From the NCBI GenBank assembly GCA_029261055.1, contig JAJDCA010000071.1:153778-217777 (forward strand): a stretch of 64,000 bases of DNA, in the 5' to 3' direction. Below the pieces are notes generated by a model. It had not been told where the DNA came from and searched no databases. It saw only the letters and a list, made by a program, of their open reading frames with translations. Positions within the stretch are counted from its first letter, which is position 1, and each line of letters opens with the position of its first letter. Both the position numbers and the translations under genes were made by a program. Positions 3,145 through 56,097 of the stretch are shown here, one piece after another. The DNA comes from Candidatus Omnitrophota bacterium (GTDB lineage: Bacteria > Omnitrophota > Gorgyraeia > Zapsychrales > Zapsychraceae).

Positions 3145-4731
3145 ATGTCAACCAATAAATTTTCCCCCCGGGCTATTATTAAATCAACGTCTGTTTTATC
3201 TTTAGGGACCTTAAGTTCGCGTATTTTGGGGTTTTTACGAGATATTATTTTAGCAAAATTATTAGGAACTGGGATTAAAGCGGATGCTTTTTTTGTGGCC
3301 TTTAAAATTCCTAATTTATTTAGGGATTTTGTTGGGGAAGGGGCTACAAATGCAGCGGTTGTGCCTGTTTTTTCAGAATATTATGCCAAAAAAGATAAAG
3401 AGGACTTTTGGAACTTTGTGAGTGTTGTTCTTTCTTTAGCTTTTATTGTCCTTAGCGTAATTACTCTTTTGGGCATTGTTTTTGCACCTCTTATTGTTCG
3501 TATGATTGCACCGGGTTTTATGGCAGATCCGGAAAAACTTTTATTGACTATTCAGTTAACGAAATGGATGTTTCCGTATCTTATTTTTATTGGTTTGACG
3601 GCCTACAGTATGGGGATTCTTTACACTTTTCGATCGTTTGCGGTGCCGGCATTTAGTCCATGTTTGCTTAATATTGCCATTATTATTAGCGCGTTTATTT
3701 CTTCAAGAACGATGGTGGAGCCCGTATTTGGTCTGGCTGTGGGTGTTCTTGTAGGGGGGCTATTGCAGCTTATGATTCAATTAGTCCCATTAAAGAAATT
3801 AGGTATGCGATATCGAAAGCCTAAGACATTACGCCATCCCGGGGCAAAAAAGATTGGTCGATTGCTGTTGCCGAGAATGTTTGGAAGTGGGGTTTATCAG
3901 CTAACGGTGCTGATTGATACGTTTTGTGCTTCTTTATCTTTTGTTGTCGGGCAAGGTGGAATTTCTGCAATTTATTATGCAAATCGACTCATTCAGTTTC
4001 CTATGGGGGTTTTTGGCGTTGCTTTAGCTAATGTAGTGTTGCCGACACTTTCCGATTTTGCCCACAAAAAAGATATGGATTCTATGAAAAAAACAATTGT
4101 TTTTTCTTTGGAAAATATCTTTTTTGTGATGTGTCCTTTTATTGTTATATTTGCACTTTTATCGACGCCTATCATTCGGGTGCTTTTTCAGCGTGGGGAA
4201 TTTAATGCTTATTCTACCGATATTACGTCCTGGGCGCTTACGTTTTATGGTTTGGGATTATTTAGTTTTGGCGGGATTAAGATTTTGGTGACGGCATTTC
4301 ATGCTCTTCAGGATACGAAGACACCTGTTAAAGTGGCTATTTTTTGTTTGGTTGTGAACGCAGTTTTGAATTTTGTTTTAATGGGTCCGCTTAAAATCGG
4401 CGGCATTGCGTTGGCCAGTGCCATAGCGGGGACTGTTGATTTTTTGATACTTTTTTATTTTCTTGAAAAAAAGCTTGGTAAGTTTAATGGCCAATTAAAA
4501 ATGTATTTCTTAAAGGTGATTTTGGCTGCAGCCCTTACCGGGGTTGGGATGTTTACTTTTTGGCGATATTGTTTTATTTCCAATGAAATCATTAAGTTAT
4601 GTTTTGCAATCATAAGCGGATTTTTATTTTACGGGTATGTCTGTTATGTATTCAAAGTTATGCAAGCTCAAAAGGTTTGGAAGTGGTTAAGAGATTGTCC
4701 CAAAACAGCTTGGACAACTCCCAAGAAGTAG
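3145..4731 (+). CDS. murJ: Lipid II flippase MurJ (MviN)
   Basis: 528-aa polytopic membrane protein. The N-terminus 'SRILGFLRDIILAKLLGTGIKADAFFVAFKIPNLFR' is a hallmark of the MurJ family. Confidence 0.85.
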   Translation: MSTNKFSPRAIIKSTSVLSLGTLSSRILGFLRDIILAKLLGTGIKADAFFVAFKIPNLFRDFVGEGATNAAVVPVFSEYYAKKDKEDFWNFVSVVLSLAFIVLSVITLLGIVFAPLIVRMIAPGFMADPEKLLLTIQLTKWMFPYLIFIGLTAYSMGILYTFRSFAVPAFSPCLLNIAIIISAFISSRTMVEPVFGLAVGVLVGGLLQLMIQLVPLKKLGMRYRKPKTLRHPGAKKIGRLLLPRMFGSGVYQLTVLIDTFCASLSFVVGQGGISAIYYANRLIQFPMGVFGVALANVVLPTLSDFAHKKDMDSMKKTIVFSLENIFFVMCPFIVIFALLSTPIIRVLFQRGEFNAYSTDITSWALTFYGLGLFSFGGIKILVTAFHALQDTKTPVKVAIFCLVVNAVLNFVLMGPLKIGGIALASAIAGTVDFLILFYFLEKKLGKFNGQLKMYFLKVILAAALTGVGMFTFWRYCFISNEIIKLCFAIISGFLFYGYVCYVFKVMQAQKVWKWLRDCPKTAWTTPKK

Positions 4732-4826
4732 CTTCAGAGTTACGTAAGAAATTTTTTTACATAAAAATTTAAATATTGACAACTAACACGGTGATTTGTT
4801 ATGATAATCACCAAGTTAGTCGTTAA

Positions 4827-5978
4827 TTGGAGGAATTTATGGATATTAAAAGGTGTATCAATCTTCGGGCAACCCTTAATAAAAAATCATTATTTTTATT
4901 TGGCCCCAGGCAGACGGGGAAGTCCTGGTTGATCAATCGTTATTTTAAGGATTGTAGAATTTACGATCTTTTGGATAGTGAAACATATCTTTTATTAAAT
5001 CAAAATCCAAAAAGATTAGAACAAGAAATTCAGCCAGAGGATAAGATTGTTGTTATTGATGAAATACAAAAACTTCCATCTCTTCTTGATGAGGTGCATC
5101 GGCTTATTGAACAGAGGGGGCTTCATTTTTTATTGACCGGATCTAGTGCAAGAAAATTACGCCGGGGTGGTGTCAATTTATTGGGGGGGAGGGCGCGGTC
5201 GCGTCATTTACATCCTTTTATTTTTAACGAACTTAATAATCATTTCAATTTATTAAAAGCTCTTAATTATGGTTTGATTCCTTCTATTTATTTTTCTGAT
5301 GCCCCCCAGGAAGATTTAAAAGCATACGCCGGTGATTATTTAAAAGAAGAAATAGCGACGGAAGGGTTAACTCGTAATGTGCCGGCGTTTAGCCGTTTTT
5401 TACAAGTAGCAGCCTTATGCAACGGATTATTAATCAATTATGCCAGTATTTCTAGTGACGCGCAGGTGCCAAGCAGTACGGTTCAGGAGTATTTTCAAAT
5501 TCTACGCGATACCCTTATTGGGTTTGATGTGCCCGCGTGGAAAAAAAGTATAAAGCGTAAGCCTGTGGGTACCTCAAAATTTTATTTTTTTGATGGAGGC
5601 GTTGTTCGATTTTTACAGAATCGATCCCCCTTTGAAGAAAAATCTCCAGAATTTGGAGATGCCTTTGAAACGTACATAGCGCATGAATTAAAATCTTTTA
5701 TTGATTATTCTCTGTCAGGGGAGCTTTGTTACTGGCGCTCTAGATCAGGTTTTGAAGTTGATTTTATTGTTAATGATATGCTGGCGGTGGAGGTAAAAGC
5801 AAAACAAAATATTACACCCAAAGATATGCGTGGTATTAAAGCTTTACAGGAAGAGCATAAATTATCGCATTATGTTATTGTTTCTTTAGAACAGCGGCCT
5901 CGCATTGTAAATAATATTCACATCCTTCCCTGGAAAGATTTTCTTTTTCAATTATGGGATGGGAAATTTAATAAATAG
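4827..5978 (+). CDS. AAA+ superfamily ATPase (AAA_14 + DUF4143 / COG1373 family)
   Basis: Walker A 'GPRQTGKS' and Walker B 'VVIDEIQ'. The C-terminal region is typical of DUF4143. This is the first of three diverged paralogs in the window. Confidence 0.7.
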   Translation: MEEFMDIKRCINLRATLNKKSLFLFGPRQTGKSWLINRYFKDCRIYDLLDSETYLLLNQNPKRLEQEIQPEDKIVVIDEIQKLPSLLDEVHRLIEQRGLHFLLTGSSARKLRRGGVNLLGGRARSRHLHPFIFNELNNHFNLLKALNYGLIPSIYFSDAPQEDLKAYAGDYLKEEIATEGLTRNVPAFSRFLQVAALCNGLLINYASISSDAQVPSSTVQEYFQILRDTLIGFDVPAWKKSIKRKPVGTSKFYFFDGGVVRFLQNRSPFEEKSPEFGDAFETYIAHELKSFIDYSLSGELCYWRSRSGFEVDFIVNDMLAVEVKAKQNITPKDMRGIKALQEEHKLSHYVIVSLEQRPRIVNNIHILPWKDFLFQLWDGKFNK

Positions 5979-6114
5979 TCAAATTTTAAAAGAATAATAA
6001 CATGTTGATACATAATAGTTTATGTTTTAATGAGTTTTTATTCGTTTATTAGAATTTCTGTAAACTATTAACCATCAGTTGGTTACAATATTCCTACCTG
6101 AAATTTGTGTCCCC

Positions 6115-6166
6115 TTGACATGTGCTTAAAATATGTTATCTTTTCAGTGTATTAGAGAAGAAAACG
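6115..6166 (+). promoter_or_regulatory. Putative sigma70-type promoter (TTGACA-N16-TATCTT) plus a ~38-nt conserved block shared with the 52163..52213 region
   Basis: TTGACA at 6115-6120, 16-nt spacer, TATCTT at 6137-6142. The block aaaatatgttatcttt[t/c]cagt[g/a]tatta..aagaaaacg is nearly identical upstream of the paralogous giant gene at 52327. Confidence 0.55.
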
Positions 6167-6204
6167 ATATCTTGAGTCATTTCGTATAAAAACCTGCCAA
6201 TAAT

Positions 6205-6239
6205 CCTGCCTGTCGGTAGACAGGCTCGCCACGGATTGG
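6205..6239 (+). promoter_or_regulatory. Conserved leader element: hairpin (gcctgtc-ggta-gacaggc) followed by invariant CTCGCCACGGATTGG
   Basis: The same architecture occurs at 52244..52273. The hairpin there has a different stem sequence but the same structure, with the identical 15-nt motif after it. Confidence 0.5.
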
Positions 6240-6267
6240 CCTATTTTTAACTCAATAGAGGAAAAAT

Positions 6268-9200
6268 ATGTTTATTTTACGCCAAAAACAACGGGTGCGT
6301 GTAGCGTACAGAGTGTTATCAGCCTTTATTATGGCCGTATTTTCCGTAACAACAATTATCCCAAGTGGTTATGCACAGAGTGTATCTTTGCCAACGGCAG
6401 GCACGGTTTTAAACCTTCCTGTGCCCGGCACGATGGTGGGCATAACCGAAGGATTTACCCCGGCTCTGATTAAAGGTATTACCATTTATCCGGACAATCC
6501 TTTGATGTTTGATTTTATTGTGGATAGCGGGCATTCTGAGATGACTGGAGAGGCCCTTAAAGATGAGGCGTCTGATATGATTAAATATTTCCTGGCGGCC
6601 TTAACCATTCCGGAAAAGGATTTATGGGTCAACTTGAGCCCGTATGAGGCGGACCGTATTATTCCTGATGGTTTGGGCGACACCTCTATGGGTCGCGATA
6701 TGTTGTCGCAAGATTATATGCTTAAACAACTTACGTCTTCGATGATGTATCCGGAGGATGAGCTGGGTGGTGAATTTTGGGAGCGTGTGTATGATAAGGC
6801 TTATGAAAAATTCGGCAACACCGACATTCCAATGAATACTTTTAACAAAATTTGGATTGTGCCACAGGCGGCTGAAGTCTATGAGCGTGAAAAAAGTGCT
6901 TTTGTAGTGGGCAGCCGTTTAAAGGTTATGTTGGAAGAAGACTATGTCGCTTTGCAGAAAAATTTAGGGGTGGAACAATATGGATTAGATGCGATGCCCA
7001 AGAGCGAGGCCAAGGTTGTCAGTGGTGTCACCTCAGAGGTAGTGCGTGAAGTCTTGATTCCTGAAATCGAACGCGAAATAAACGAAGGCGCCAACTTTGC
7101 CAAACTCCGCCAGATCTACCATGCCATGATTTTGTCTACGTGGTACAAAAAGAGGCTGCAGGAAAGTTTATTGGGACAGGTGTATGTAGATCAAAATAAA
7201 ACCATGGGCGTCGATACTCAGGATAAGCAGATCAACCAAAAAATTTACGATCAATATGTCGAATCTTTTAAAAAAGGCGTGTACAACTACATTAAAGAAG
7301 ATTACAACCCCGCCACCCAACAAATCACCCCCCGCAAATATTTCTCCGGCGGAATGAATCAATCCATGTTGAGCCGTATTTTTAAATTTATGGATAGGCC
7401 GACACGATTTGAGGTAGCACCGACAGGATTTGAGATATCCTACCAAACAAGTCTGATCGATGCCAATAAAGACAATGCGAGTATTGCCGTGCGTGTGAAA
7501 GAAGAGGTTGAATCGCAGGTTGATTTTGTGTTGATGAACTCAGAAAAAGAAATCGTTTCGGATGAGTCGATGCTTCAAGATTTTGATCCGTTTTTTTTGA
7601 TGAGTCTTATAACAAAATGGTCGCCTAAATATGAGGATGATTTAAAGGTATTCCACTTTATAAGGCATTTATATCTTGCCTGGATAGCGACGAAGGGGGA
7701 TCTTGCTAAGGCAACAATGACTTTAACGGAGAAGTCTTCATTTAAAAAATTTATTCAGGATAAAACTTTAGTCAATAAGGCTATTGAAGGGTCGCTTTAT
7801 GTGAATAATCCGAATATTAAAGGTTTGCTAAAAAACATCCGCACAGATATCACCAAGGCTGAAAATAAAATAAAGGCGGTAAGAAGAGAATTTGTTGGGG
7901 TGAATGAAAAAAGTACACAGGAAACGCAGGAGGCGGGGATGATCACGCTTCAGAATGTTCTTTTGAAAAATAAGAGTGCTGGTAAGACAGGGGAGGAGGA
8001 TGTTTTTGGAATAAGCATTAGTCGATTTCCAAGTGATCAATACGGTGAATTCGAGGCAAATTTTATCCAGAAAGATGGAAATACTGTGCAAATAATTGCA
8101 TGGCAAGAAAATAAAATTATTGACGTTGATTACAATCAGACAATGGAAAATTTTTACAAGGATCATAATTTATTTTATCGCAATAATAAAAAAGGGATTC
8201 CAACGGTAATTATTGAGGAAAAGTACGGAAAAAATAGAAAAATTTATAAAATTACACGTGGTGAAGGGCAAGAAGTAATGAAACAAAAGGATTTCAAAGA
8301 GCTTGTTTGGAATGATACGGCGATGGTTACAGATAAAGAAAGTCAGGCCGCTAAGAAGATATTGTTTGATTTTAGAGAAAGTGAAGCTAATAGGATGAAT
8401 ACTGCAAGAATACGAAGAGTCCATGTTCTTATGAATGCAATGAGAATTCGGTATGCCATAGGAAAAGATGAAGGAAGCAGTGTTGTTGGCATATTTTATG
8501 ATATGGAAAAAGCATTCTTGAAAAAGCAATCCAACTTCAAGCACTCAGATGCAATATTATTTTATCATACTGTTTTAGCGTTGGATCTACCAGACGAAGA
8601 ATACGTAACGCTAAAAAATAGTGTGATGCAAAGCTTGTTCCGTTTGGCAGAGAGAATAATGAAGGAAGAGGGGATCGTCATTAGTGTAAAGGAGATTTTA
8701 GCCCAGAAGGAAAAAATAAAAATGGCTATGATAAACGTTTTGCCGCATATGAAGCATTTTAAACATATGGAGTGGGGTGTCTATGATTACATTGATCGGG
8801 TTTTAAGCAGTTCAGATAAGAAATGGGATGAAGTATATTATTACAAGTACAAGGTGGCGATAAGTTTAGGGGAGAGCTATTCCAAGTTAGGGCATTCATT
8901 TGAAGGTGTTTTTGCGAAGATTAAGGGGAAGATAGCTTCTTTTCGGGCCAATGATTATGTAGATGTGTTTAGACAGTTGAATAAAAAATATACCGCGGAT
9001 GCATTGTATCAGGGGTTACCCTACACGGTAGATGGGGTGCGGATTTTTAAATCGAGATTAAAACAATACCGTCAGGATTTCAGATCGGCCATGGATACGC
9101 ACTATAAAAATATTTTTAAACTCGCACTTAAAGGTGAGCTGGAAGACAGTCCTTATGATATTTATGAAAATGAAGGGTCATCATTGCAAAATCAAGCAGG

Positions 9201-11340
9201 TGCGCAACTTTCTACAGAAGAATTAATTTATCTTAATGGCATTGCGGCAGGAAATGAATCGTTCTGGTTAGAAGCGTGGAGAATGCGCAATGCTTTTCAA
9301 AACAGTCCGGATGAGGTCGAAAGACTAATAATCCTTGAGGATGTTTTTAATGGCAAATCAATAGAGTTGGGGCTTTTAAAAATAGAAAAGGACGAAAAAA
9401 AGAAGGATAAGGAAAAAATAGCAATACTTGAAGTTGAAATGAAATCGATCGAAGAAACAATTGACCTTCTTTTAGAGAAAAAGCAAGAGATTTTAAGTGA
9501 AGTAGAGTATGTTGCGGAGGATGAGAATGAACAGAATCTAGCCATGTTAGTAGGGCTGAATCAGAAGATTGATCAATGGCTGCAGGGGCTTGAAAAAGAT
9601 GAAGACGCGGCGATGGCAGCGTTTAAATCATTGCTCCTTAAGATTAAACAGAAAATAACGGGGATATCTAATCGGAAAAAAATTGTTGTCGAGGATATTC
9701 CAGGTCTTGAGACGCTTGGGGTATCGATGGAAAATTTCCTAAATGCAGAAGGTATCCATACACCCAAAGATGCGGCTAAGTTGGGTAAGAGCATCAATGA
9801 GACGATAAACAGAGCGATTAAAGCATTTAGAAAGCGAGGTTCAGTGGATTTTACAGAAGATAATCTTTTCGCACTTCTTCTTAAGAAATATGATGAAAAT
9901 GTGCCCATTAATCGGGACGATTTAATGAAAGATTTAGAAAAATTTTCCCTAGGTGTGTATTCGAATTCTGTTGAGTTTGGCCTTATCAAATTACAATTAC
10001 AAATGAAAGTGTTTCTAAATCGGAACGTCGAGTGGTTTTTGAGTCCTATGCATCACTTTCCTCAAGCGGTGGCCAGGGCCAGTCAAGATAATAATATTGG
10101 GAGAACTATTGAAATGTTGGGCGAAATTTCGACGTATTTAGATGATGGAGTAACCTTTGCTGGAAACGCGGCGAGTAGGATATTCAAGAAGTATAAATAC
10201 ATAGATGAAAATAATTATGAAGAGATGGCCGATGAGTATGCACAAGTAGTGCGTTCTCTTCAAGATCACATCAAACAAATTGCAGATGAAGATCATGAGG
10301 AATTTCAAGAGATGATAGATATTTTAAATGCCAGTATTCAGCAACAGCTTGAAGATGTCTTGGGGGGTATTGCAGAGGCTAAAGTTCCTTATGTAGAAGA
10401 AAGAGGAGGTAAACGTTTTTCCATAGGTATTCCTTATGATTTGAGGGATAGCTTTGCTAAAAATGTAGTGAGTATCTATGAACGCCATACTGACTGGATG
10501 AACATTCTTAAAGTATCTTTAAAAGGGACCTATCGTGATTTGAAAATTAAAATAGATGAAGTGCGGGAGATGGAGAAAAAGTTCATAAATGATTATTTTA
10601 ATGTCAGGCCAAATAGCAATCTTTTGAAGGAAGAAGAAAAAGAAATATATATCCCAAGAGTAGAAGAGTTTTATGAGAAGTTAGCTGAATTTGAAGGAGT
10701 AAAAATGCCATCTAAGGAGAAGCGTTGGATTACGGGGTGGATTTTAAAATTAGAGGGCATATATAAAGGATTAGGAGGGGCAGACAAGGTTATTGATCGC
10801 GTGAATGTAAAGACAATAGGCGACGGCATGGACACCTGGGATGATTTGCCGGATTTTGATCAAATAACGGCAGAATTAGATGACTCCATGATGGCCACGA
10901 CTCTGGCAGAATTGCTAGAGAAATTGAAAATGTCAAAAGATGAAGTGGATAAAAAGGCTGTTACAAAACAAATATTTAGACTGGTGGACGAAGATTTAGA
11001 CGAGCCTTTAAAAGGTAGATTTCTTAAACAATTCACTGAATTAAATGGTGAAACGGATAAAGCGAGCATAACTCCCATTGGTGGTATTAATTTTGATTCG
11101 GCGATGTTGAATTTGCAGATTAAGCGCGATGGGGCTGGGGTGCCCTTGCCTTTGATTGAGCAGGATATGGATTTGGGTATGCGTGTCCAAGGATTTTTGC
11201 CGATTATTATTAATGCTACTCCAGTAAGCCTGCCGCAGTTGCTTGGTTTTTCCGATACTGTACCGCAAGAGGCCGATTCTTCGACTATGAGTCTGTCTTA
11301 TCACATCCTCACCCGCGACCCGCAGGATATTATCATTTAA
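6268..11340 (+). CDS. Giant secreted/surface protein of unknown function (1690 aa). N-terminal conserved domain, long K/E-rich coiled-coil centre, conserved C-terminal ~65-aa module
   Basis: N-terminal signal/anchor (positively charged, then hydrophobic, AQS). Residues ~40-375 are about 70% identical to the 52327 paralog. The central region is strongly lysine/glutamate-rich with heptad-like repeats. The C-terminal block GGINFDSAMLNLQIKRDGAGVPLP…LPIIINATPVSLPQLLGF is shared with the paralog. I recognise no known domain. Confidence 0.75.
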   Translation: MFILRQKQRVRVAYRVLSAFIMAVFSVTTIIPSGYAQSVSLPTAGTVLNLPVPGTMVGITEGFTPALIKGITIYPDNPLMFDFIVDSGHSEMTGEALKDEASDMIKYFLAALTIPEKDLWVNLSPYEADRIIPDGLGDTSMGRDMLSQDYMLKQLTSSMMYPEDELGGEFWERVYDKAYEKFGNTDIPMNTFNKIWIVPQAAEVYEREKSAFVVGSRLKVMLEEDYVALQKNLGVEQYGLDAMPKSEAKVVSGVTSEVVREVLIPEIEREINEGANFAKLRQIYHAMILSTWYKKRLQESLLGQVYVDQNKTMGVDTQDKQINQKIYDQYVESFKKGVYNYIKEDYNPATQQITPRKYFSGGMNQSMLSRIFKFMDRPTRFEVAPTGFEISYQTSLIDANKDNASIAVRVKEEVESQVDFVLMNSEKEIVSDESMLQDFDPFFLMSLITKWSPKYEDDLKVFHFIRHLYLAWIATKGDLAKATMTLTEKSSFKKFIQDKTLVNKAIEGSLYVNNPNIKGLLKNIRTDITKAENKIKAVRREFVGVNEKSTQETQEAGMITLQNVLLKNKSAGKTGEEDVFGISISRFPSDQYGEFEANFIQKDGNTVQIIAWQENKIIDVDYNQTMENFYKDHNLFYRNNKKGIPTVIIEEKYGKNRKIYKITRGEGQEVMKQKDFKELVWNDTAMVTDKESQAAKKILFDFRESEANRMNTARIRRVHVLMNAMRIRYAIGKDEGSSVVGIFYDMEKAFLKKQSNFKHSDAILFYHTVLALDLPDEEYVTLKNSVMQSLFRLAERIMKEEGIVISVKEILAQKEKIKMAMINVLPHMKHFKHMEWGVYDYIDRVLSSSDKKWDEVYYYKYKVAISLGESYSKLGHSFEGVFAKIKGKIASFRANDYVDVFRQLNKKYTADALYQGLPYTVDGVRIFKSRLKQYRQDFRSAMDTHYKNIFKLALKGELEDSPYDIYENEGSSLQNQAGAQLSTEELIYLNGIAAGNESFWLEAWRMRNAFQNSPDEVERLIILEDVFNGKSIELGLLKIEKDEKKKDKEKIAILEVEMKSIEETIDLLLEKKQEILSEVEYVAEDENEQNLAMLVGLNQKIDQWLQGLEKDEDAAMAAFKSLLLKIKQKITGISNRKKIVVEDIPGLETLGVSMENFLNAEGIHTPKDAAKLGKSINETINRAIKAFRKRGSVDFTEDNLFALLLKKYDENVPINRDDLMKDLEKFSLGVYSNSVEFGLIKLQLQMKVFLNRNVEWFLSPMHHFPQAVARASQDNNIGRTIEMLGEISTYLDDGVTFAGNAASRIFKKYKYIDENNYEEMADEYAQVVRSLQDHIKQIADEDHEEFQEMIDILNASIQQQLEDVLGGIAEAKVPYVEERGGKRFSIGIPYDLRDSFAKNVVSIYERHTDWMNILKVSLKGTYRDLKIKIDEVREMEKKFINDYFNVRPNSNLLKEEEKEIYIPRVEEFYEKLAEFEGVKMPSKEKRWITGWILKLEGIYKGLGGADKVIDRVNVKTIGDGMDTWDDLPDFDQITAELDDSMMATTLAELLEKLKMSKDEVDKKAVTKQIFRLVDEDLDEPLKGRFLKQFTELNGETDKASITPIGGINFDSAMLNLQIKRDGAGVPLPLIEQDMDLGMRVQGFLPIIINATPVSLPQLLGFSDTVPQEADSSTMSLSYHILTRDPQDIII

Positions 11341-11408
11341 CCTTCTGATGTTACGATTTTAGAATAAAATAACCTTGTATTATAGTCACAATATTGTATA
11401 ATTAACCT

Positions 11409-12737
11409 ATGAAAAGATTCATAGAAGAAGAATTAATAAAGTGGAAAGATGATTCAGATCGAAAGCCGCTTATTCTTTCAGGGGCTCGGCAAGTTGGCAA
11501 GTCTTATGTCATAGAACGCAACTTTTCTTCCAATTTTGATCAGGTTTTAAGTATCAACTTTGAAAAACAGCCTGAGTTTAAGGATTGTTTTGAGTCAGAC
11601 TTATCACCGGGAAAAATTATTCGTAAAATTGAGGCTTTAAGCCAGAAAAGAGTAGATATTGGTCGAACCCTAGTTTTTTTGGATGAGATTCAAATTTGCC
11701 CAAAAGCCATAACGGCTTTGCGGTATTTTTATGAAGAACTTCCTGCCTTACACCTTATCGCCGCGGGATCGCTGCTTGAGTTTACAATGGAAAGTATTTC
11801 TGTGCCTGTGGGGAGGGTAACTTACCGTCATTTAACTCCGTTATCATTTGAAGAATTTCTTTATAATTCCGGGAATGAAATTTTATTAGAAGAAATATCA
11901 CGGCATAATTTTGATGCCCCGTTTGATAAGGTGGTGGCTCAAAAAGCGGAAGTTCTTCTTAAAGAATATATGGCGATTGGAGGGATGCCGCAGGTTGTAG
12001 ATCGGTATATTCAGAATCAAGATTATTTAAAATGTCAGGAAATTTTGTCAGATTTGCTGGAAACTTATACTAACGATTTCCCTAAATATGGTCGAAGGGA
12101 TGCGGATTTGAAATATATTGATTTAGTTTTCGCGAGAGCTGCGCATCTCGTAGGAAAGCAGTTTAAATATGTTCATATTACGCGGGATATTCAATCAAAA
12201 TACATCAAACAAGGCGTTGACCTTCTTGTTAAGGCTGGCGTTTTGTCCTTGATTTACAAAACATATGGTTCTCCTCTGGGGGCTAATTATAATCCGCATC
12301 GTTTTAAGCTGCTATTTCTTGACATTGGTCTCATGCAAAGGGCATGTGGTTTGAACATATCTAGATGGGTAAGTGATGGGCATGATTTGATTCACGCAGG
12401 GGTGATCGCTGAACAGTTTGTAGGGCAGGAAATTGCAGCACATGCACATTTTAAAAAAGGAAGACTGTATTATTGGGAGAGAGACAAAAGGGGGAGTTCT
12501 GCGGAACTTGATTATCTTGTGGAAATGGCTGGGCGCATTCTACCTGTTGAGGTTAAATCAGGAACCATCGCCAGGTTAAAGAGTTTGCAGAATTTTCTGA
12601 AAGCGCATCCTGATATTCCTGAAGGAATTAAAGTATCTCTCGACAATTCTGGAAAGAAACAAAATATTCGTTCAATCCCGCTGTACGCCTTTGGGAGCTG
12701 GTTAAAACGGCAGGATTATACTAAATCTATTAAATAA
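11409..12737 (+). CDS. AAA+ superfamily ATPase (AAA_14 + DUF4143 / COG1373 family)
   Basis: Walker A 'GARQVGKS' and Walker B 'LVFLDEIQ'. Second paralog, immediately downstream of the giant gene. Confidence 0.7.
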   Translation: MKRFIEEELIKWKDDSDRKPLILSGARQVGKSYVIERNFSSNFDQVLSINFEKQPEFKDCFESDLSPGKIIRKIEALSQKRVDIGRTLVFLDEIQICPKAITALRYFYEELPALHLIAAGSLLEFTMESISVPVGRVTYRHLTPLSFEEFLYNSGNEILLEEISRHNFDAPFDKVVAQKAEVLLKEYMAIGGMPQVVDRYIQNQDYLKCQEILSDLLETYTNDFPKYGRRDADLKYIDLVFARAAHLVGKQFKYVHITRDIQSKYIKQGVDLLVKAGVLSLIYKTYGSPLGANYNPHRFKLLFLDIGLMQRACGLNISRWVSDGHDLIHAGVIAEQFVGQEIAAHAHFKKGRLYYWERDKRGSSAELDYLVEMAGRILPVEVKSGTIARLKSLQNFLKAHPDIPEGIKVSLDNSGKKQNIRSIPLYAFGSWLKRQDYTKSIK

Positions 12738-12769
12738 TTTTTTTAGTTTTTCGATACGAAGCATTCACG

Positions 12770-14002
12770 GTGACCATTAAAGAAAAAATACAGGCATTGC
12801 CTTTAACCAGCGGGGTGTATTTGATGAAAAATGCGGCTGGGAAGGTGATTTATGTGGGCAAAGCGATCGCTCTGCGTAAAAGAGTGCAGTCGTATTTTCG
12901 TAAATCGCAGGCGCCGATTTCTAAGACGGATCTTTTGGTTTCGGAAATTCGGGATATTTCGGTAATTGAGACCGCGAGTGAGGCTGAGGCACTTATTCTT
13001 GAAGCGAGCCTGGTTAAAGAATATAAACCTAAATACAATATTGATTTAAGAGATGATAAGAGTTATCCTTTGATTGAAATCTCTGGGGACATGTTTCCGC
13101 GTATTTCTGTGGAGAGGCCGCATAAGAAAAAAAAGGATAATAAATATTATGGGCCGTATGTTAAGGTGGGATTGGTACGCGAGGCATTAAGTTTAATCCG
13201 AAAGATTTTTCCGTTTAGGACATGTGATCCGTTTCCTCAAAAAGAATGCCTGGATTATCATATCGGTTTATGTGATGCGCCGTGCATAAAGCATATCAAT
13301 AAAAAAGATTATGCCAAGAATGTGCGCAATGTATGTTTGATTCTAGAGGGGAGAAAAGATTCTTTATATCGGAAGTTAAGGAAAGAGATGGAGACGTGCA
13401 CTCAAAAACAGCGGTTTGAAGAGGCGGCTAAAGTGCGAGATCAGCTTCAGGCTTTAGGGGCTTTGTATTCCGGGACAAAAGATATTAATTATTATAAAGA
13501 GGCCGAGCAATTACAACGTGCTTTAGGTTTGCCTCGTTTGCCTGAACGTGTTGAGACATTTGACATTTCGAATACTATGGGACAACAAGCAGTTGGATCT
13601 ATGGTTTCATTTTTGCATGGCAAACCAGACAAAAATAATTATCGGCGTTTTCGCATAAAAGAAGTGGAAGGTATTGATGATTTTAAGATGATTGCAGAAA
13701 TTGTGCGCAGACGTTATCGTCGTTTGAAGAAGGAGGGTCGGACTTATCCTGATCTTATTGTTATTGATGGAGGAAAGGGGCAGCTTTCGGCCGCATTTAG
13801 AGAATTACGATTATTGGATGTAGAAATTCCTATTATTTCCTTAGCTAAACGGGAAGAAGAAGTGTATCTTCCTCAAAAGAGAAGTTCCATTAAGTTGTCA
13901 TCTCATTCATTGGGATTAAAGCTTCTTCAACGGACACGTGATGAAGCGCATCGTTTTGCAATTACTTATCATAGGAAGTTGAGATGGAAAAACACAATTT
14001 AA
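12770..14002 (+). CDS. uvrC: UvrC-like excinuclease subunit (GIY-YIG + UVR + RNase H-like endonuclease domain; lacks the C-terminal HhH region)
   Basis: GIY-YIG motif (SGVYLMKNAAGKVIYVGKA), UVR-like 'QRFEEAAKVRDQLQAL', endonuclease domain 'DISN…IDGGKGQ…RDEAHRFAITYHR'. It is 410 aa against the typical ~600 aa. Confidence 0.7.
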   Translation: MTIKEKIQALPLTSGVYLMKNAAGKVIYVGKAIALRKRVQSYFRKSQAPISKTDLLVSEIRDISVIETASEAEALILEASLVKEYKPKYNIDLRDDKSYPLIEISGDMFPRISVERPHKKKKDNKYYGPYVKVGLVREALSLIRKIFPFRTCDPFPQKECLDYHIGLCDAPCIKHINKKDYAKNVRNVCLILEGRKDSLYRKLRKEMETCTQKQRFEEAAKVRDQLQALGALYSGTKDINYYKEAEQLQRALGLPRLPERVETFDISNTMGQQAVGSMVSFLHGKPDKNNYRRFRIKEVEGIDDFKMIAEIVRRRYRRLKKEGRTYPDLIVIDGGKGQLSAAFRELRLLDVEIPIISLAKREEEVYLPQKRSSIKLSSHSLGLKLLQRTRDEAHRFAITYHRKLRWKNTI

Positions 14003-29336: not shown

Positions 29337-29963
29337 ATGACAAAGATAAAAATTTGGGAATCATTTTGTGATGGTCAGAATTTTTTTTATGGAATTGGAT
29401 GTAAGAAGAATTATAAAAAAGCTTTTGAGTTTTTAATGATAGCTGCCAATAATGGAATTCCTCACGCTCAAAATCTTATTGGATTTTGCTATTCAGAAGG
29501 AAAAGGAATTAAGAAAGATAGTAAATCAGGCTTTAAATGGTATCGTAAGGCTGTCCTTAATAAAAAGAAACATGATTCCTCCAGAAAAAATAGAGCTATT
29601 GCTTTTTGTAATTTAGCTATGATGTGCGATGAAGGTAAAGGCGTCGAAAAAAATTCAAAACTTGCGTTTAAATATTATAAAAGTGCTGCTGAATTAGGGG
29701 ACACTGAATCCCAGTGTAATTTAGGAGTTTTATATCATGAAGGTCGTGGCATTCAGCAGAATGATAAGTTATCGATCTATTGGACTAGAAAAGCGGCAAA
29801 AAAAGGTGATGATATGGCTCAATATAACCTTGGATTGTTTTATTTGGATGGAGATGGAGTCCAAAAAAGTAATAAATTTGCAAATTTATGGTTAAAAAAG
29901 GCTTCTGGTAACAGGAATAAAAAAACTGAAAAGAAGTTAAAGTTGATTAACAAATGTAATTGA
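29337..29963 (+). CDS. Sel1-like repeat (SLR) protein
   Basis: Repeated 'A.NLG..Y..G.GV.KD..KA..WY.KAA' Sel1 motifs. Confidence 0.65.
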   Translation: MTKIKIWESFCDGQNFFYGIGCKKNYKKAFEFLMIAANNGIPHAQNLIGFCYSEGKGIKKDSKSGFKWYRKAVLNKKKHDSSRKNRAIAFCNLAMMCDEGKGVEKNSKLAFKYYKSAAELGDTESQCNLGVLYHEGRGIQQNDKLSIYWTRKAAKKGDDMAQYNLGLFYLDGDGVQKSNKFANLWLKKASGNRNKKTEKKLKLINKCN

Positions 29964-30011
29964 TTCTAGTGCTCATCCTTTATAAAAGACAGCATTTATT
30001 TATGGCTCCAC

Positions 30012-30743: not shown

Positions 30744-30801
30744 AATATAGAAAAAGTGAAAAATTATAGAATATAGTATTAAAAATTTTTTAATTTCCAT
30801 G

Positions 30802-30848
30802 ACGTTGTAGCTCAGTTAGTAGGGCCAGTGAGTTCATTCGTAATTTTC
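30802..30848 (+). pseudogene. Degenerate tRNA-Thr 5' fragment
   Basis: acgttgtagctcagttagtagggccagtgagttcattcgtaatttt aligns to positions 1-~40 of the tRNA-Thr at 31659. The 3' half is absent. Confidence 0.55.
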
Positions 30849-34852: not shown

Positions 34853-34854
34853 TT

Positions 34855-50592: not shown

Positions 50593-51762
50593 TTACAAAT
50601 CATTCAAGAGGTGGATATCAGAAGGGTCTTTTATGATAAGTTTTTTGGTGGCTTTTATGCGGTTGAAAAGGTTTAATTGCTTTTTAGTAAGTTCTCGATA
50701 ATATTTTGATTCAATTAAGGTTTTATTTTGTGTATAGAAATCAATTTCTATGCCGTCCTCGTATATGTAAGATGGGCTTGCCTGACGGATTTTTAAGAAA
50801 ATATAGTTTTCAAAAAGGCTCCCTTTGTCTCGAAACCCTGTAAACAAAGTGCGTATGCCAAGGTCCGGGGCGTAGCCTTTTTTAGGGGATAGAAGTGTTT
50901 CATTAGTTTTACCATGGCGTGGGATAAGGTAAATTAAGTAGGTTTCGGCAAACATCGAAAGATAGCGTTTAGCTGTATCGGGCGCAATAGAGAGTATTTT
51001 AGCCATTTTATTGATACTTATTTGTTTGCCGGCACGTTCCATAAGGAGCATGAAATAGTCTTTTATCATTTGAGGATTCTTAATGTTATGATAGGCAATA
51101 ATATCTTTATAAATAATGTCATCGACCAGGGTTTTTAAATATTCACGATCTGGGTGGAGAACATATTCAGGGATACCACCGGTTTTCATATAATCTTCAA
51201 AATACGGTTCTTTAAGATAGTTTTCTTTTTGTTTGATGGTGATGTTACGAAATTGGCAAAATTCTTCAAAATCAAGTGGGGCGATTTCTAAAATACGTTC
51301 TCTTCCGGTTAAAAGTGCTTTTTTATCTTTGAGTAAAGAAGTGCTTGAGGAAGACGTATAAATTTTTACGTTTTGATTGTCATAAAGGTTTTTTAGTTGT
51401 AAATGTGGATTTTTTTTGTAGGTAATTTCATCAAGAAAAAGATAGATTTTTTTGTTAAGAGGCAGTTTGAAAATTTTGCGATATTCTGAAATGATATCAA
51501 GGATGGATTTATTTATTAAGGTATAATCATCCAGGCTCACATAAAAAATGTGTTTTGGGTTAGCTCCTTTATGAATAAGCCGTTGGATAAAAAGTTTCAA
51601 TAGAGTCGTTTTTCCAACCCTTCGTAAGCCGGTAAGGATAACGATTGATTTTGTGTTGAGAAGATTTTCCATGGAAGAAAGTATGCGCGGACGATCTTTA
51701 ATTGCTTCTAGTGAAATGGGCTCTTCCCACCATGGATTGTATTGGTAGAGTGTTTCTTTCAT
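50593..51762 (-). CDS. AAA+ superfamily ATPase (AAA_14 + DUF4143 / COG1373 family)
   Basis: Walker A 'GLRRVGKTT' and Walker B 'YLFLDEIT'. Start trimmed to MKETLYQYNPWWEE by analogy with the paralogs. Third paralog, divergent to the second giant gene. Confidence 0.65.
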   Translation of the reverse strand: MKETLYQYNPWWEEPISLEAIKDRPRILSSMENLLNTKSIVILTGLRRVGKTTLLKLFIQRLIHKGANPKHIFYVSLDDYTLINKSILDIISEYRKIFKLPLNKKIYLFLDEITYKKNPHLQLKNLYDNQNVKIYTSSSSTSLLKDKKALLTGRERILEIAPLDFEEFCQFRNITIKQKENYLKEPYFEDYMKTGGIPEYVLHPDREYLKTLVDDIIYKDIIAYHNIKNPQMIKDYFMLLMERAGKQISINKMAKILSIAPDTAKRYLSMFAETYLIYLIPRHGKTNETLLSPKKGYAPDLGIRTLFTGFRDKGSLFENYIFLKIRQASPSYIYEDGIEIDFYTQNKTLIESKYYRELTKKQLNLFNRIKATKKLIIKDPSDIHLLNDL

Positions 51763-52162
51763 GCCTAAAGTATACGTTATAATCGTATATTTATCAAGGA
51801 AATTATACGATAATGATAAAATAATAATGTAATTGTTAAATACCATGAAATAAGAAATTGACAATTTTGAATATCATGTCCTTAAGATATGTAAGTATTT
51901 AGCATTCTGAGTTGTCGAAGAGCGTTAAAAGCATGAAATTATTTCTAGCAGGACATTGAAAGCCCTGCGCATTCCATGCTGACACCGGGGAATTTTCTGA
52001 GTGTTTTCTTAAAAAAATAAGTATTTTAAAAGAAATGTATCATGTTTTAAATCAATAGGTTATGCAATCTACAAATTTCTTCATTTTTATAATATATTAT
52101 AACATTATTTATTTCAATATGTTATGAATCATCTGGCTTCATTTCTCTCCACTTGACACTCG

Positions 52163-52213
52163 TCCAAAATATGTTATCTTTCCAGTATATTAATAAGAAA
52201 ACGTTTTATTCCA
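52163..52213 (+). promoter_or_regulatory. Putative sigma70-type promoter (TTGACA-N16-TATCTT) plus conserved block, paralogous to 6115..6166
   Basis: TTGACA 52163-52168, TATCTT 52185-52190. The block aaaatatgttatctttccagtatattaataagaaaacg is nearly identical to the one upstream of the first giant gene. Confidence 0.55.
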
Positions 52214-52243
52214 CATAATTACACCAATAATTCCTACAGCAGG

Positions 52244-52273
52244 TAGGTCTCGCCACGGATTGGTTAAATTTAT
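52244..52273 (+). promoter_or_regulatory. Conserved leader element: hairpin (cctac-agcag-gtagg) followed by invariant CTCGCCACGGATTGG
   Basis: The structure is conserved relative to 6205..6239 with a different stem sequence (compensatory changes). The 15-nt motif is identical. Confidence 0.5.
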
Positions 52274-52326
52274 AAAAATTAATTAGACATTGAACTACAA
52301 TGTTTTTTCATAATCCGGAGGAAATA

Positions 52327-55300
52327 ATGAACATTTACATAAAAAAACAACGTTTTTGTCTGTTTTACAGGGCTTTATCCGCCTTTATTGCCGTGGCATT
52401 CCTAACCACCAGCATTGTGCCGCAAGGGTTTGGGCTGAGCGCAGTCGAAGCCTATGCGCAGAGTATGTCTGTGCCAGCACCAATAGTGTTAAATTTGCCT
52501 GTACCGGGTACAATGGTCGGCATGACCGAAGTATTTACACCGGCAATGGTCAAGGGCATCACTATTCATCCGGATAATCCGCTTTTATTTGATTTTCTCA
52601 TCAATAAAGGGGATACCCATCTTAAAGGCGACGAATTAAAGACGGAAGCCAATAAATTGATTAAATATTTTTTGGCGGGCCTAACCGTGCCGGAGAAAGA
52701 AATGTGGGTTAACCTCAGTCCGTACGAAGCAGATAGAATTATCCCTGAAGGTTTTGGCGATACCGAAATGGGCCGGGATTTGCTTGCGCAAGATTACATT
52801 TTAAAACAGCTCACCTCATCATTGATGTATCCAGAAGATGAATTAGGTGAGGCCTTTTGGCAACGTGTTTATGAAAAATCTTATGAAAAATTTGGTCATA
52901 CAGATATTCCGATGAACACATTTAACAAAATTTGGATCGTGCCGGAAAACGCATCTGTGTATGAACACGAAGAAACTTCGACCGTGTATTTAGTGGATAG
53001 TCATTTGAAGGTGATGCTTGAAGAAGATTATGTTGCTGCGCAACATAATAGTGACGCGTCGCTCGTGGCTCGTGACTCGAAAAAACATTCGGATATCAAG
53101 CGCGCCACGCGTCACGCCATGCCTGCCGGCAGGCAGGAGCGACTAGCGACGAACCTTATCCGAGAGATTCTTATCCCCGAAATCGAACGCGAAGTCAACC
53201 AAGGCAAAACGTTCGCCAATCTGCGCCAGATTTATCATTCCGTTATTCTGGCCACGTGGTACAAACGAAAATTTGCTGTAGGGAACGAGCACCTGCCTGC
53301 CGGTAGGCAAGGTGCCCAATCCTTATTAGGACACGTGTATGTAGATCAAAACAAAACCAAAGGTGTAGATACGCAGGATAAAGACATTAACCAAAAGATT
53401 TATAATCAGTACGTCGAATCTTTCAAGAAAGGCGTTTACGATTACATCAAAGAAGATTATGATCCCGCGACTCGACAGATCATCCCGCGGAAATATTTCT
53501 CAGGAGGAGCGGAGCTTTTTCTGGCCAAAATAAATCACGCTATGCTCACTCCAGAAAGGCGTGTAGAGATAACAAGCGAGGGTAAGAATACAGATCGTGT
53601 TGTAGTGGAATTGAATGAAATCGGATTAAAAGGTACTGACTATGCACAAGTAGTTACAGATTCAGGAGAATATTTACAGCGGGCAGGTGATATTAAAAGT
53701 GCGGAAAATGTAGATGCAGTAATTAGTCCTATTGTCGATAATGCGATGCAAACATTTCCAGGCTTAATGAATAAATTTTCAAAGGATGGGTATGTTTTAC
53801 ATGCATTGGAACGAGGAGCTGATTTAACGCCTTGGGATGGAGAGGTTGTTATGGAATTGCTTGGTCAAATGACTGAAGGGCGTGAGTATGCGAATGGAGT
53901 TATTTATGATTCGGGTCATTATAGAAGCAGAAGTTTTACTTATTTTAACATGCCATTTTTGAGTGAATTGAGTGAAGATATTATTAGGTTTTCCGTTGAT
54001 TCATCTCATAAAAATCCAATCGAAGTAGTAGATACATCTGAAAATTTTGAGTTTTTTCTTGGTGAAAATAAAGAAACACAAAAAATTGAATTTTTAGCTT
54101 GGGAATGGAAACGACGCGATGTGAGCTATGAAGAACATAACATTTCCTATAAAGGTGAAAATGGGAAATATGATGTTCTTAAAATAAGCCCTAAGCAATA
54201 TGGGAATGTTTTGAGTAAAGGATTTGGAGTTGAAGAAAAACCTTCTAGTAATCAGATTGCCTATTTAGGGGCTACACAACTAAAAGGGAAAGAGTTTAAG
54301 GAATGGAATTTTTCTAATATTGAAGAAACTTCTCAGGGAAAGTGGGGGCATGGCTCTTCATATAGTATGGATTATCCTGAGTTTAAGAAAGACTTTATTC
54401 ATTACACGCAATATAGAAATGATGATGTAGATTTAATGACACACGTTTATTCAATTCCAGTAATTATGAAAGATAATCTTTCTTATAATATGGGTAAAAA
54501 TAAAAATAGCGAAGGTTTTGAAATTCGTATTGGCAGAAATAAAAATAGAGAAATTGAGTTTATGTTGTTAACAGCTCCACAAAAAATTATTTTAAGGTAT
54601 AAAAATAAGCTAGGAATGCCGAAAAGTAAAGTGATAACGAAAGCTGAACGTGATCAAATTTTAAAAGATCCGACAATAATTAATACAATAATATTTAATA
54701 GTAAGAAAATGTCCAAGGAATGGGTTGTTGATGAGGCAAAGGAAAAAGAATTTTCAGAAAACACTAAAACACGTATTCTAAATAATCAGGTAATAGTAGA
54801 TGAGCATACTAAGGTATTAAAAAATAAGAGAGTTGTGGAGATTAAAGAAAATGGAAAGAAGCCCTCCAACTTAATGCCGGAGAATAAAAAAGAACATGAA
54901 AAAGTTATGCGTATTAATAAAATAATAGAAGAGATGAAGTCGGTTGTTAAGAACCATTCTTTTCGTGACCTTTATTTTGGTCCAATTCTAGGACGAAAAA
55001 ATATTAAATCTTTTCGTGATTATTTAATAGCAGGGAATATACAAGACATTCAGGCGATTGTTTCTGGTATGAATCCACAGAAGGCAAAAGATAAGGGAGA
55101 AAAAAAGATTTTTAGAAAATATTATGAAAGTCCAAAATTTTCTAATTTAGCAACACAAATCAAATCAAAAGCAAAAGCTTTAATAGATAAGCTTCCTCAA
55201 ATCAAGGGAAAAAATCTAGAAGCCGAGATAAATTCTTTTCGTGAAGATGTTTTAAATGAAATTGAAAATCTTGATGCGGCGATGATTGGAAATGGTCAAG

Positions 55301-56097
55301 ATAATACCACCGTGTCGGCAGAAATAAAGCCAACTATCGTTATGATAGAAGATAAGGACGAACCTAATTCTAGCGAGCCTGATAAAGCTATGATGGAGAA
55401 AAAGACAATTTTATTAGTTGAGGATGATGAAGATATAAGAAAAGGATTGAAGGATTTCTTTGAGTCGAGAGATTACAATGTTATTGCGATGGAAAATGGT
55501 AAAGAGGCTTTAACACTTATAATAAAGAGAAAGGAAATGAAAGAGCCTCTTGATCTTGTTATAAGTGACTTAGATATGCCAGAGATGGATGGGATGGAGT
55601 TGCTAGAAAATGCAGAAAAAATATGGCCCGAATTACTTTTTATTATGCAATCAGGGAGAATGCCTTCAAATATTTCTGGTTTGCTTGAGAGGAAATCTAA
55701 TGTACATAAGGCTTTGGATAAAAGATTTGCTTTAGAGAAATATGAATCTGCGTTAAATGATTTGTGGGGGGATGTTGATTCAGCAATGATAAGGGCGGAG
55801 GAAGTGACGGGGGTAAATAAAGTTGGTGGTATCAATCTTGACCCGGCCATGCTGGATTTGCAGATCAAGCGTGATGGCAACGGTGTACCATTGCCGGTGA
55901 GTGAACAGGATTTTTCGATGATGCATATTGAAGGGGTTTTGCCTGTTATTATCAATGTAACGCCAGTTAATATTCCTATGCTGCTAGGTTTTGCAAATGA
56001 CGTACTCCCTGTTGCTGGCTGTCCATCGGATGATGAAATGATTGATTGCGATCGCGACTTGATTTCCATCAAACCGGAAGAGGAGGTTTTTTTGTAG
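52327..56097 (+). CDS. Giant secreted/surface protein paralog (1256 aa) with an embedded CheY-like receiver (REC) domain near the C-terminus
   Basis: Start at the ATG preceded by CCGGAGGA. N-terminal ~400 aa are about 70% identical to the 6268 protein. REC domain at ~residues 1030-1150 (LLVEDDEDIRK…LVISDLDMPEMDG…IMQSG…). C-terminal module GGINLDPAMLDLQIKRDGNGVPLP…LPVIINVTPVNIPMLLGF is shared with the paralog. Confidence 0.75.
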   Translation: MNIYIKKQRFCLFYRALSAFIAVAFLTTSIVPQGFGLSAVEAYAQSMSVPAPIVLNLPVPGTMVGMTEVFTPAMVKGITIHPDNPLLFDFLINKGDTHLKGDELKTEANKLIKYFLAGLTVPEKEMWVNLSPYEADRIIPEGFGDTEMGRDLLAQDYILKQLTSSLMYPEDELGEAFWQRVYEKSYEKFGHTDIPMNTFNKIWIVPENASVYEHEETSTVYLVDSHLKVMLEEDYVAAQHNSDASLVARDSKKHSDIKRATRHAMPAGRQERLATNLIREILIPEIEREVNQGKTFANLRQIYHSVILATWYKRKFAVGNEHLPAGRQGAQSLLGHVYVDQNKTKGVDTQDKDINQKIYNQYVESFKKGVYDYIKEDYDPATRQIIPRKYFSGGAELFLAKINHAMLTPERRVEITSEGKNTDRVVVELNEIGLKGTDYAQVVTDSGEYLQRAGDIKSAENVDAVISPIVDNAMQTFPGLMNKFSKDGYVLHALERGADLTPWDGEVVMELLGQMTEGREYANGVIYDSGHYRSRSFTYFNMPFLSELSEDIIRFSVDSSHKNPIEVVDTSENFEFFLGENKETQKIEFLAWEWKRRDVSYEEHNISYKGENGKYDVLKISPKQYGNVLSKGFGVEEKPSSNQIAYLGATQLKGKEFKEWNFSNIEETSQGKWGHGSSYSMDYPEFKKDFIHYTQYRNDDVDLMTHVYSIPVIMKDNLSYNMGKNKNSEGFEIRIGRNKNREIEFMLLTAPQKIILRYKNKLGMPKSKVITKAERDQILKDPTIINTIIFNSKKMSKEWVVDEAKEKEFSENTKTRILNNQVIVDEHTKVLKNKRVVEIKENGKKPSNLMPENKKEHEKVMRINKIIEEMKSVVKNHSFRDLYFGPILGRKNIKSFRDYLIAGNIQDIQAIVSGMNPQKAKDKGEKKIFRKYYESPKFSNLATQIKSKAKALIDKLPQIKGKNLEAEINSFREDVLNEIENLDAAMIGNGQDNTTVSAEIKPTIVMIEDKDEPNSSEPDKAMMEKKTILLVEDDEDIRKGLKDFFESRDYNVIAMENGKEALTLIIKRKEMKEPLDLVISDLDMPEMDGMELLENAEKIWPELLFIMQSGRMPSNISGLLERKSNVHKALDKRFALEKYESALNDLWGDVDSAMIRAEEVTGVNKVGGINLDPAMLDLQIKRDGNGVPLPVSEQDFSMMHIEGVLPVIINVTPVNIPMLLGFANDVLPVAGCPSDDEMIDCDRDLISIKPEEEVFL
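53120..53135. repeat. Palindromic repeat copy (tgcctgccggcaggca) inside the giant gene, encoding an MPAGRQE insertion
   Basis: 16-bp perfect palindrome. It coincides with an extra peptide segment that is absent from the paralog. Confidence 0.55.
53289..53315. repeat. Imperfect palindromic repeat copy (cacctgcctgccggtaggcaaggtg) inside the giant gene, encoding a …HLPAGRQGAQ insertion
   Basis: Same family. It coincides with a 13-aa in-frame insertion relative to the paralog (KRKFAVGNEHLPAGRQGAQSLLG vs KKRLQESLLG). Confidence 0.5.

Follow-up and report, generated by a model that had tools for sequence, protein, structure and literature searches.

Genes of the COG1373 type ('predicted AAA+ ATPase') correspond to PDC-S01, a single-gene candidate system in which an ATPase is combined with a PD-(D/E)XK nuclease (PMC12988326). 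PDC-S01 ranks fourth in frequency among 'defence' calls across prokaryotes, with repeated transfers between domains (PMC12988326), and its DUF4143 domain has been placed in the PD-(D/E)XK superfamily (PMC3424549). The phylum Omnitrophota is also the source of described giant genes, the flanks of which contain secretion, pilus and glycoside-hydrolase genes, while AAA_14/DUF4143 neighbours are unmentioned (West-Roberts et al. 2023 preprint; bioRxiv 10.64898/2026.06.07.730766); the complete-genome preprint reports these flanks as rich in mobile DNA (bioRxiv 10.64898/2026.06.07.730766). Here we analysed a stretch of 64,000 nucleotides from a Candidatus Omnitrophota genome (contig JAJDCA010000071.1, positions 153,778 to 217,777 of the forward strand; referred to below as the window), in which three genes for ATPase-nucleases of this type, A1, A2 and A3, lie next to two long paralogous genes, G1 and G2. 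In all, about 170 related loci were compared. The explanation that we favour, with a probability of about 0.58, is that A1, A2 and A3 are three independent, self-sufficient PDC-S01-type modules lodged at permissive boundaries made by accessory long genes, and that the arrangement is local clustering and not a partnership.

Each of the three open reading frames (ORFs) contained AAA_14 (PF13173) followed by DUF4143 (PF13635), both above the gathering scores (cut-offs 27 and 28.1 bits), in agreement with an earlier sequence-only reading of this DNA that had named three COG1373-like ATPases. The scores for AAA_14 and DUF4143 were 79.1 and 99.4 bits in A1 (4839..5978, plus strand; E-values 3.7e-22 and 2.3e-28), 86.5 and 75.6 bits in A2 (11409..12737, plus strand; 1.9e-24 and 4.7e-21) and 104.9 and 62.7 bits in A3 (50593..51762, minus strand; 4.2e-30 and 4.5e-17). 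The ORF of A1 is open from a TTG at 4827, and the public gene call begins at the ATG at 4839 (P0121, 379 aa, 100% identical); that of A3 spans 50593-51864, and a start at 51762 fits the N-termini of its homologs. Each protein matched a different sub-model of PDC-S01 in PADLOC with most or all of its length covered: A1 PDLC04790 (7.4e-51), A2 PDLC04788 (5e-132, full length) and A3 PDLC04787 (2e-69). The Walker A motif G..GK(S/T) was present in all three, and when ten diverse members were aligned the Walker B columns D74-E75 were invariant, as was the nuclease core formed by D308, E318 and K320. A1, A2 and A3 are thus predicted from their sequences to be AAA+ ATPases fused to a C-terminal PD-(D/E)XK nuclease, with the catalytic motifs intact. 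No NCBIfam model was found for A1-A3 and no solved structure related by sequence to A2, and a scan of viral contigs with the ATPase alignment gave no matches.

The three ATPases were said to be diverged genes and not recent duplicates, with 25-30% identity; the first part of this statement held, and the measured divergence was somewhat greater. Pairwise BLASTP gave partial alignments with 24%, 20% and 24% identity (E-values 3e-9, 6e-5 and 1e-3), and identity in a multiple alignment was 21-22%. Proteins 65-77% identical to A1 occur across Omnitrophota, Xenobiia and Deltaproteobacteria, and the closest named homologs of A3 (60-72% identity) come from Syntrophales, Nitrospirae, Wallbacteria, Gammaproteobacteria and Desantisbacteria, with no Omnitrophota among them. 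Such a spread of relatives over phyla is the signature of horizontally spread, self-contained genes. Since A1, A2 and A3 belong to three different subfamilies, they would have been acquired or retained independently of one another.

The long genes belong to a family of their own. G1 (6268..11340, plus strand) encodes 1690 aa consisting of an N-terminal hydrophobic helix, an N-terminal module (N-module), a unique middle and a C-terminal module (C-module), with no Pfam match; G2 (52327..56097, plus strand) encodes 1256-1265 aa, its ORF being open from 52300 and the start at 52327 aligning with that of G1. The two proteins are 60% identical over an N-module of about 380-420 aa and 48% identical over a C-module of about 90 aa, and apart from these conserved ends their middles are unrelated. 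The variable middle of G2 contains a receiver domain (Pfam Response_reg, aa 1037-1148, 9e-16). Homologs of the N-module numbered 1282 at E<=1e-3, and nearly all of the named ones were from Omnitrophota. A scan with the N-module alignment over one genome per GTDB species gave 572 confirmed matches, of which the best 80 were kept; they represent 79 distinct loci (1.29 Mb) labelled Omnitrophota or 'uncultured Planctomycetales', a few just 'bacterium'. These loci contained 108 N-module ORFs, often in tandem (24 of 77 loci with two or more), and 83 matches to the C-module, which has the pattern GGI[ND].D...L.IKRDG.GVPLP. Family members range from 766 to >3,700 aa in the 79 loci and share one plan: a hydrophobic helix at the N-terminus is followed by the conserved N-module (about 330-380 aa), then by a hypervariable middle, which in some contains ankyrin, NUDIX or receiver domains, and by the conserved C-module (about 80 aa). 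The helix occupied aa 2-30 in an AlphaFold model with a confidence score (pLDDT) of only 65. The family matched no Pfam family and no PDB fold, and PADLOC gave no matches in G1 or G2. The middle region of G1 (aa 400-1580) had no homolog in the 79 loci, and a search of these loci for orthologs of G1 and G2 by their middle regions found none, the receiver domain of G2 being the only part that gave matches. By these sequence comparisons G1 and G2 are members of what appears to be an Omnitrophota-only family of long proteins.

Every ATPase lies directly beside one of the two long paralogs, and A1 and A2 bracket G1, as had been read from the sequence. The order of the first block is murJ-A1-G1-A2-uvrC; that of the second locus is a TPR/SH3 gene, A3 (on the minus strand), G2, a response regulator and a kinase. 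The host genome is very compact and almost single-strand, with 48 of the 53 window genes on the plus strand, a strong GC skew, a median intergenic gap of 37 bp and 39 of the 52 gaps below 100 bp. When the order of the 53 genes was shuffled in 200,000 trials, all three ATPases fell beside a long gene with a frequency of 1.3e-4, in a test that was post hoc. The layout of ATPases and long genes within the window is real and non-random.

The first block was described as inserted between otherwise typical neighbours, and this was confirmed by synteny. In the window murJ, encoding the lipid II flippase (3145..4731, plus strand; Pfam MurJ, E-value 1.3e-120), is the left backbone neighbour of the block, and uvrC (12770..14002, plus strand; Pfam UvrC_RNaseH_dom 7.4e-54, GIY-YIG and UVR) is the right one. 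In a related locus (L038) murJ (2-616) is directly followed by a uvrC homolog (597-1934; E-value 5e-177) and then by homologs of the next two window genes. Since murJ and uvrC abut there, the stretch of about 8 kb at 4732..12769, which contains A1, G1 and A2 and is missing from that junction, is an insertion. The murJ|uvrC junction is a clear case of stepwise accessory-gene accretion at a conserved junction. The long genes also move by themselves. At L015:7218-14843 a family member separates the homologs of a gene pair spaced by 3 bp in the window (33368-35787), an HtrA-like protease gene and an undecaprenyl-phosphate-translocase-like gene, and no ATPase is present at that insertion. Because this family member splits a pair that adjoins in the window, the long genes too are insertions, and they change position between genomes.

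The insertion did not have the marks of a cassette acquired as a unit, which was one of the two explanations offered by the sequence-only reading. A search for terminal inverted or direct repeats and for a target-site duplication, made at each ATPase as well as at the 8 kb block, gave only short AT-rich matches at chance level, and no recombinase or integrase was found in the block, which holds A1, G1 and A2 only. A 32-nt inverted pair flanking G2 (51780/56205; 72% complementarity) was judged to be chance. The proposed comparison of GC content and codon usage revealed no signs of recent acquisition, the block being indistinguishable from its flanks: the deviation of A1, G1 and A2 from the window mean was |z| <=1.3 for GC, GC at third codon positions (GC3) and codon distance. 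A3 had a raised codon distance (z 2.8), as had other minus-strand genes (z 1.4-2.2).

The other explanation offered was a functional partnership, and gene-neighbourhood analysis over relatives of the long genes found no conserved adjacency of ATPases to N/C-module proteins. We used three independent detectors: a custom hidden Markov model (HMM) built from A1-A3, Pfam and PADLOC. In the 1.29 Mb of the 79 long-gene loci the custom HMM found two ATPase homologs only. One (L009:8623-9684) lies directly between two family members and is without a P-loop; the other is a fragment in L066, 9.5 kb from the closest family member. Among 124 ATPase-sized genes located within 3.5 kb of 75 family members, Pfam DUF4143 was detected in one, the L009 gene, and PADLOC called PDC-S01 in the same single gene. 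Adjacency was therefore observed in 1 of 75 scorable long-family loci and was absent in 74. The custom HMM recovered all Pfam-called copies in control loci, so its sensitivity is not at fault. Two loci that have LptF/G genes in common with the G2 region (L050 and L007) contain a family member and no ATPase.

Similar results were obtained when the comparison started from the ATPases. No N- or C-module was detected in any of 80 metagenome loci (648 kb) with relatives of A1, which are 43-75% identical, mostly 43-49% and probably from other phyla, so that they form a weak Omnitrophota-specific reverse test. In ten contexts of A1 or A3 homologs with 65-90% identity, a gene with the N- and C-modules was found in one only, that of P0122 (L080), which lies beside family members. 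The remaining contexts were of several kinds: housekeeping genes (P0124 in L161); an IS66 transposase close by (P0133 in L163 and P0127 in L179); a PIN/Phd toxin-antitoxin pair with nucleotidyltransferases and NYN (P0129 in L173); small HTH and RHH genes (P0154 in L175); an array of HisKA_7TM kinases with AbiEii, Fic, bAvd, RHS and a second ATPase copy (P0226 in L168); an island with four ATPase copies, TIR, HNH, Bro-N and an AEP-TOTE helicase (P0242 in L172); and direct contact with an unrelated gene, either a multi-P-loop gene of 3,223 aa (P0168 in L164) or a gene of at least 3,333 aa with Fic and AbiEii present (P0224 in L177). MULE transposases were also seen in the homolog contexts. Such surroundings are characteristic of flexible or defence regions. 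Three of the ten contexts (L080, L168 and L172) contained additional copies of this ATPase family, with four in 21 kb in L172 and two in L168. The stretch L172:6616-21042, in which the four AAA_14/DUF4143 genes accompany an AEP-TOTE/DEAD helicase, HNH, Bro-N and TIR, has the appearance of a defence or mobile island centred on the closest relative of A3. At L168:1184-21155 seven HisKA_7TM kinase paralogs, AbiEii, Fic, a bAvd-like gene and an RHS/Tc toxin have two AAA_14/DUF4143 genes interspersed among them, a further instance of such ATPases among expanded paralog arrays.

The L080 locus allowed a direct comparison with the window. Its A1 ortholog (P0122) has 90% protein and 81% DNA identity, and the layout is the 3' end of a long gene, an A2-like gene (minus strand), the A1-like gene (plus strand), an MscS channel gene and the 5' end of a long gene. 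The A2-like gene is only 33% identical to A2 and in the opposite orientation; it is an acquisition separate from A2. Similarity between the window and L080 at the DNA level was limited to the A1 gene and about 75 bp upstream, a stretch that includes the promoter-like site at 4776-4805; A1 with its promoter therefore behaves as a separate unit, and its neighbours have changed. At L009:1826-20183 three family members (2249, 1110 and 2279 aa) stand in tandem, and the A1-like ATPase described above, encoded on the opposite strand, separates the first two of them. L009 also has the TPR-SH3 gene of the G2 locus, and the ATPase copy upstream of the family member there is A1-like, not A3-like. The recurrence of ATPases with long genes may be co-residence in flexible regions.

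The promoter-like sites point in the same direction as the limits of the L080 similarity. Upstream of A1 (4776..4805, plus strand) we detected TTGACA-18-TATGAT with an extended-10 TG and 11 of 12 consensus matches, its function being predicted from the consensus only. G1 is preceded by a promoter and leader at 6103..6267 (plus strand), in which TTGACA-16-TATCTT (6115-6142) is followed by a small hairpin and CTCGCCACGGATTGG; the paralogous region of G2 (52141..52326, plus strand) has TTGACA-16-TATCTT at 52153-52180, also followed by CTCGCCACGGATTGG. The upstream DNA of G1 and G2 is alike over about 170 nt (blastn and alignment), the sequence of the hairpin stem differs, and the 15-mer CTCGCCACGGATTGG is identical and located 44-79 nt before the start codon. 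As a candidate family-wide regulatory element the 15-mer was rejected, being absent upstream of 73 other family members. The upstream DNA shared by G1 and G2 and absent from these 73 members indicates a lineage-specific promoter and leader, and in-lineage paralogs. The duplicated unit thus comprises promoter, leader and long gene, and the ATPases are outside it. A3 has a promoter-like site of its own (51797-51769, minus strand), and weak promoter-like sites for A2 (11337-11386) lie in the 68 bp gap after G1. A3 and G2 are divergent, with about 540-560 bp between them, as the sequence-only reading stated; the promoter region that it took to be common to both was not confirmed, since their promoter-like sites are about 360 bp apart and a single common promoter does not fit. 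Each gene appears to have its own promoter, and from these sites, together with the limit of the L080 similarity, we infer that each ATPase gene is autonomous.

These observations can be combined as follows. The long genes would be accessory insertions with their own promoters that were dropped into a housekeeping array, and for that reason ATPases would be found at their borders: in a compact genome the long genes would create some of the few boundaries at which further insertion is harmless. The ATPase-nucleases, having arrived or persisted one by one, would act on nucleic acid in an ATP-driven manner and then cleave it, with a function that by analogy may be defence-like or selfish. The outcome would be small accessory islets that are neither an operon nor a mobile cassette. 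Several findings weigh against this explanation. The adjacency of three ATPases out of three is improbable under free shuffling (1.3e-4), and it remains at about 1% when insertions are confined to the approximately 14 promoter-bearing or transcription-unit boundaries, by our own post hoc estimate. The co-location recurs, rearranged, in the close relative L080, and also in L009. No other defence or mobile genes were found in the window islets by Pfam and neighbour annotation. The one PDC-S01 representative that others challenged with T4, T5 and T7 in E. coli B was outside the four protective candidates (bioRxiv 10.1101/2024.09.26.614923), and because this representative gave no protection a defence role of PDC-S01 is unproven. 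Finally, two A1-like homologs directly adjoin unrelated genes whose products have 3,223 aa and at least 3,333 aa (L164:76-11137 and L177:5093-16244), and genes of 2,000 aa or more without an N-module number no more than 2 among the 805 of the Omnitrophota loci. The L164 protein has three P-loop regions and the L177 protein has no Pfam match; considered as hidden family members, both were rejected, having neither an N- nor a C-module and no similarity to each other. Taken with the window, this hints at a preference of the ATPases for long-gene borders that permissive sites explain only loosely.

A stronger form of this preference would hold that in Omnitrophota PDC-S01-type genes lodge preferentially at the borders of very long, fast-evolving accessory genes, whether of the N/C-module family (window, L080 and L009) or unrelated and >3,000 aa (L164 and L177), such borders being insertion hot spots or the ATPase-nucleases acting in turnover or protection. 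We regard this generalization as doubtful. If true, a very common 'defence candidate' would be tied to long-gene biology, and a gathering of ATPase-nucleases at long-gene borders would give a handle both on the function of PDC-S01 and on long-gene dynamics in an uncultured phylum.

Among the other explanations, a lineage-specific functional link, by which the ATPase-nucleases guard, regulate or drive the recombination or diversification of the long paralogs, seems unlikely to us. The conserved ends and variable middles of the paralogs would suit cassette exchange, and the nuclease and ATPase motifs that it would require are intact in A1-A3, but the copy in L009, which by its position between tandem members is one of the points in favour of a link, has lost its P-loop. 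The non-random adjacency in the window, the 90%-identical A1 between two family members in L080 and the ATPase homologs beside unrelated very long genes are likewise what a link predicts; against them stand the absence of adjacency from 74 of 75 family loci, 9 of 10 close ATPase contexts and 80 of 80 distant ATPase loci. Moreover, the ATPases are of different subfamilies, with their nearest relatives in phyla without the long family, each gene has an apparent promoter of its own, and order and orientation vary from same strand upstream and same strand downstream to divergent, and to a divergent pair in L080.

Joint arrival of A1-G1-A2 (and of A3-G2) by horizontal transfer as one mobile block is very unlikely. 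The block does break the conserved murJ|uvrC junction, A1, G1 and A2 are all accessory, and the giant genes of Omnitrophota have flanks rich in mobile DNA, as cited above. However, terminal repeats, target duplication and a recombinase were all missing from the searched DNA, composition stayed within about 1.3 standard deviations of the window mean, with the deviation of A3 common to minus-strand genes, and family members were found inserted elsewhere without ATPases (L015). The L080 locus speaks against it as well, its A1 ortholog being alike over the gene and 75 bp only, with different neighbours and an A2-like gene just 33% identical. Since G1 and G2 share promoter DNA, they were duplicated within the lineage, a further point against this reading. 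Pure coincidence, by which ATPases are numerous in the genome and three of them fell by chance beside two long genes, is also quite improbable. It draws on the abundance of the family, one of the commonest among candidate defence genes and often multi-copy, as in L172 and L168, and on the post hoc spotting of the pattern; the shuffle probability, the reappearance of the pattern in L080 and the finding of just 2 copies in 1.29 Mb of other Omnitrophota loci speak against it. Independent modules at permissive boundaries remain our preferred explanation.

Several features of the window were observed beside these loci. With long intergenic gaps and a markedly low GC (0.29-0.31; z -2 to -2.8), three small genes at 29337-31572 (Sel1 repeats, PDZ and Yip1) may form another accessory patch. 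An OmpR-type response regulator just 3' of G2 (56474-57151) has a high GC of 0.46 (z 2.7; GC3 z 3.2) and is followed by a HAMP/HisKA kinase at 57157-58584. The uvrC product is short, with 410 aa in the window and 445 aa in L038; GIY-YIG, UVR and RNase H-like domains are present, and the C-terminal HhH region was not detected.

The results advise caution in taking local gene clustering for a functional system, and as a by-product they provide a description of an Omnitrophota-only long-protein family with conserved ends and hypervariable middles. Compared with the described giant genes of Omnitrophota (West-Roberts et al. 2023 preprint; bioRxiv 10.64898/2026.06.07.730766), which encode tens of thousands of aa, G1 and G2 have much smaller products (1.3-1.7 kaa), and their distinct family with conserved N- and C-modules was not found in either giant-gene preprint by term search. 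They resemble the giant genes in phylum, in N-terminal hydrophobic or signal segments, in their accessory character and in the mobile or defence genes sometimes found in the flanks. Defence islands and integration hot spots offer a second comparison. The window differs from them in having islets of one or two genes with no recombinases or tRNA anchors, and its slot is empty in nearly all other genomes sampled. It is like them in that different ATPase subfamilies occupy equivalent long-gene borders (A3 by G2, and an A1-like gene in L009), in the contrast of A2 with a 33%-identical copy in L080, and in the insertion of the block into conserved synteny. The closest match is PDC-S01 itself. That candidate was proposed because it lies embedded among other defence genes, whereas A1-A3 stand beside long surface-type genes in a housekeeping backbone, their window neighbours being MurJ, UvrC, a TPR-SH3 protein, a response regulator and the long genes. 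They agree with PDC-S01 in their HMM matches (E-values 7e-51 to 5e-132), in the fusion of ATPase and PD-(D/E)XK domains, in their single-gene organisation and in their multi-copy, horizontally spread distribution. A1, A2 and A3 are new members of this known, common and functionally unproven family, which is seen here as isolated single genes in a compact Omnitrophota genome.

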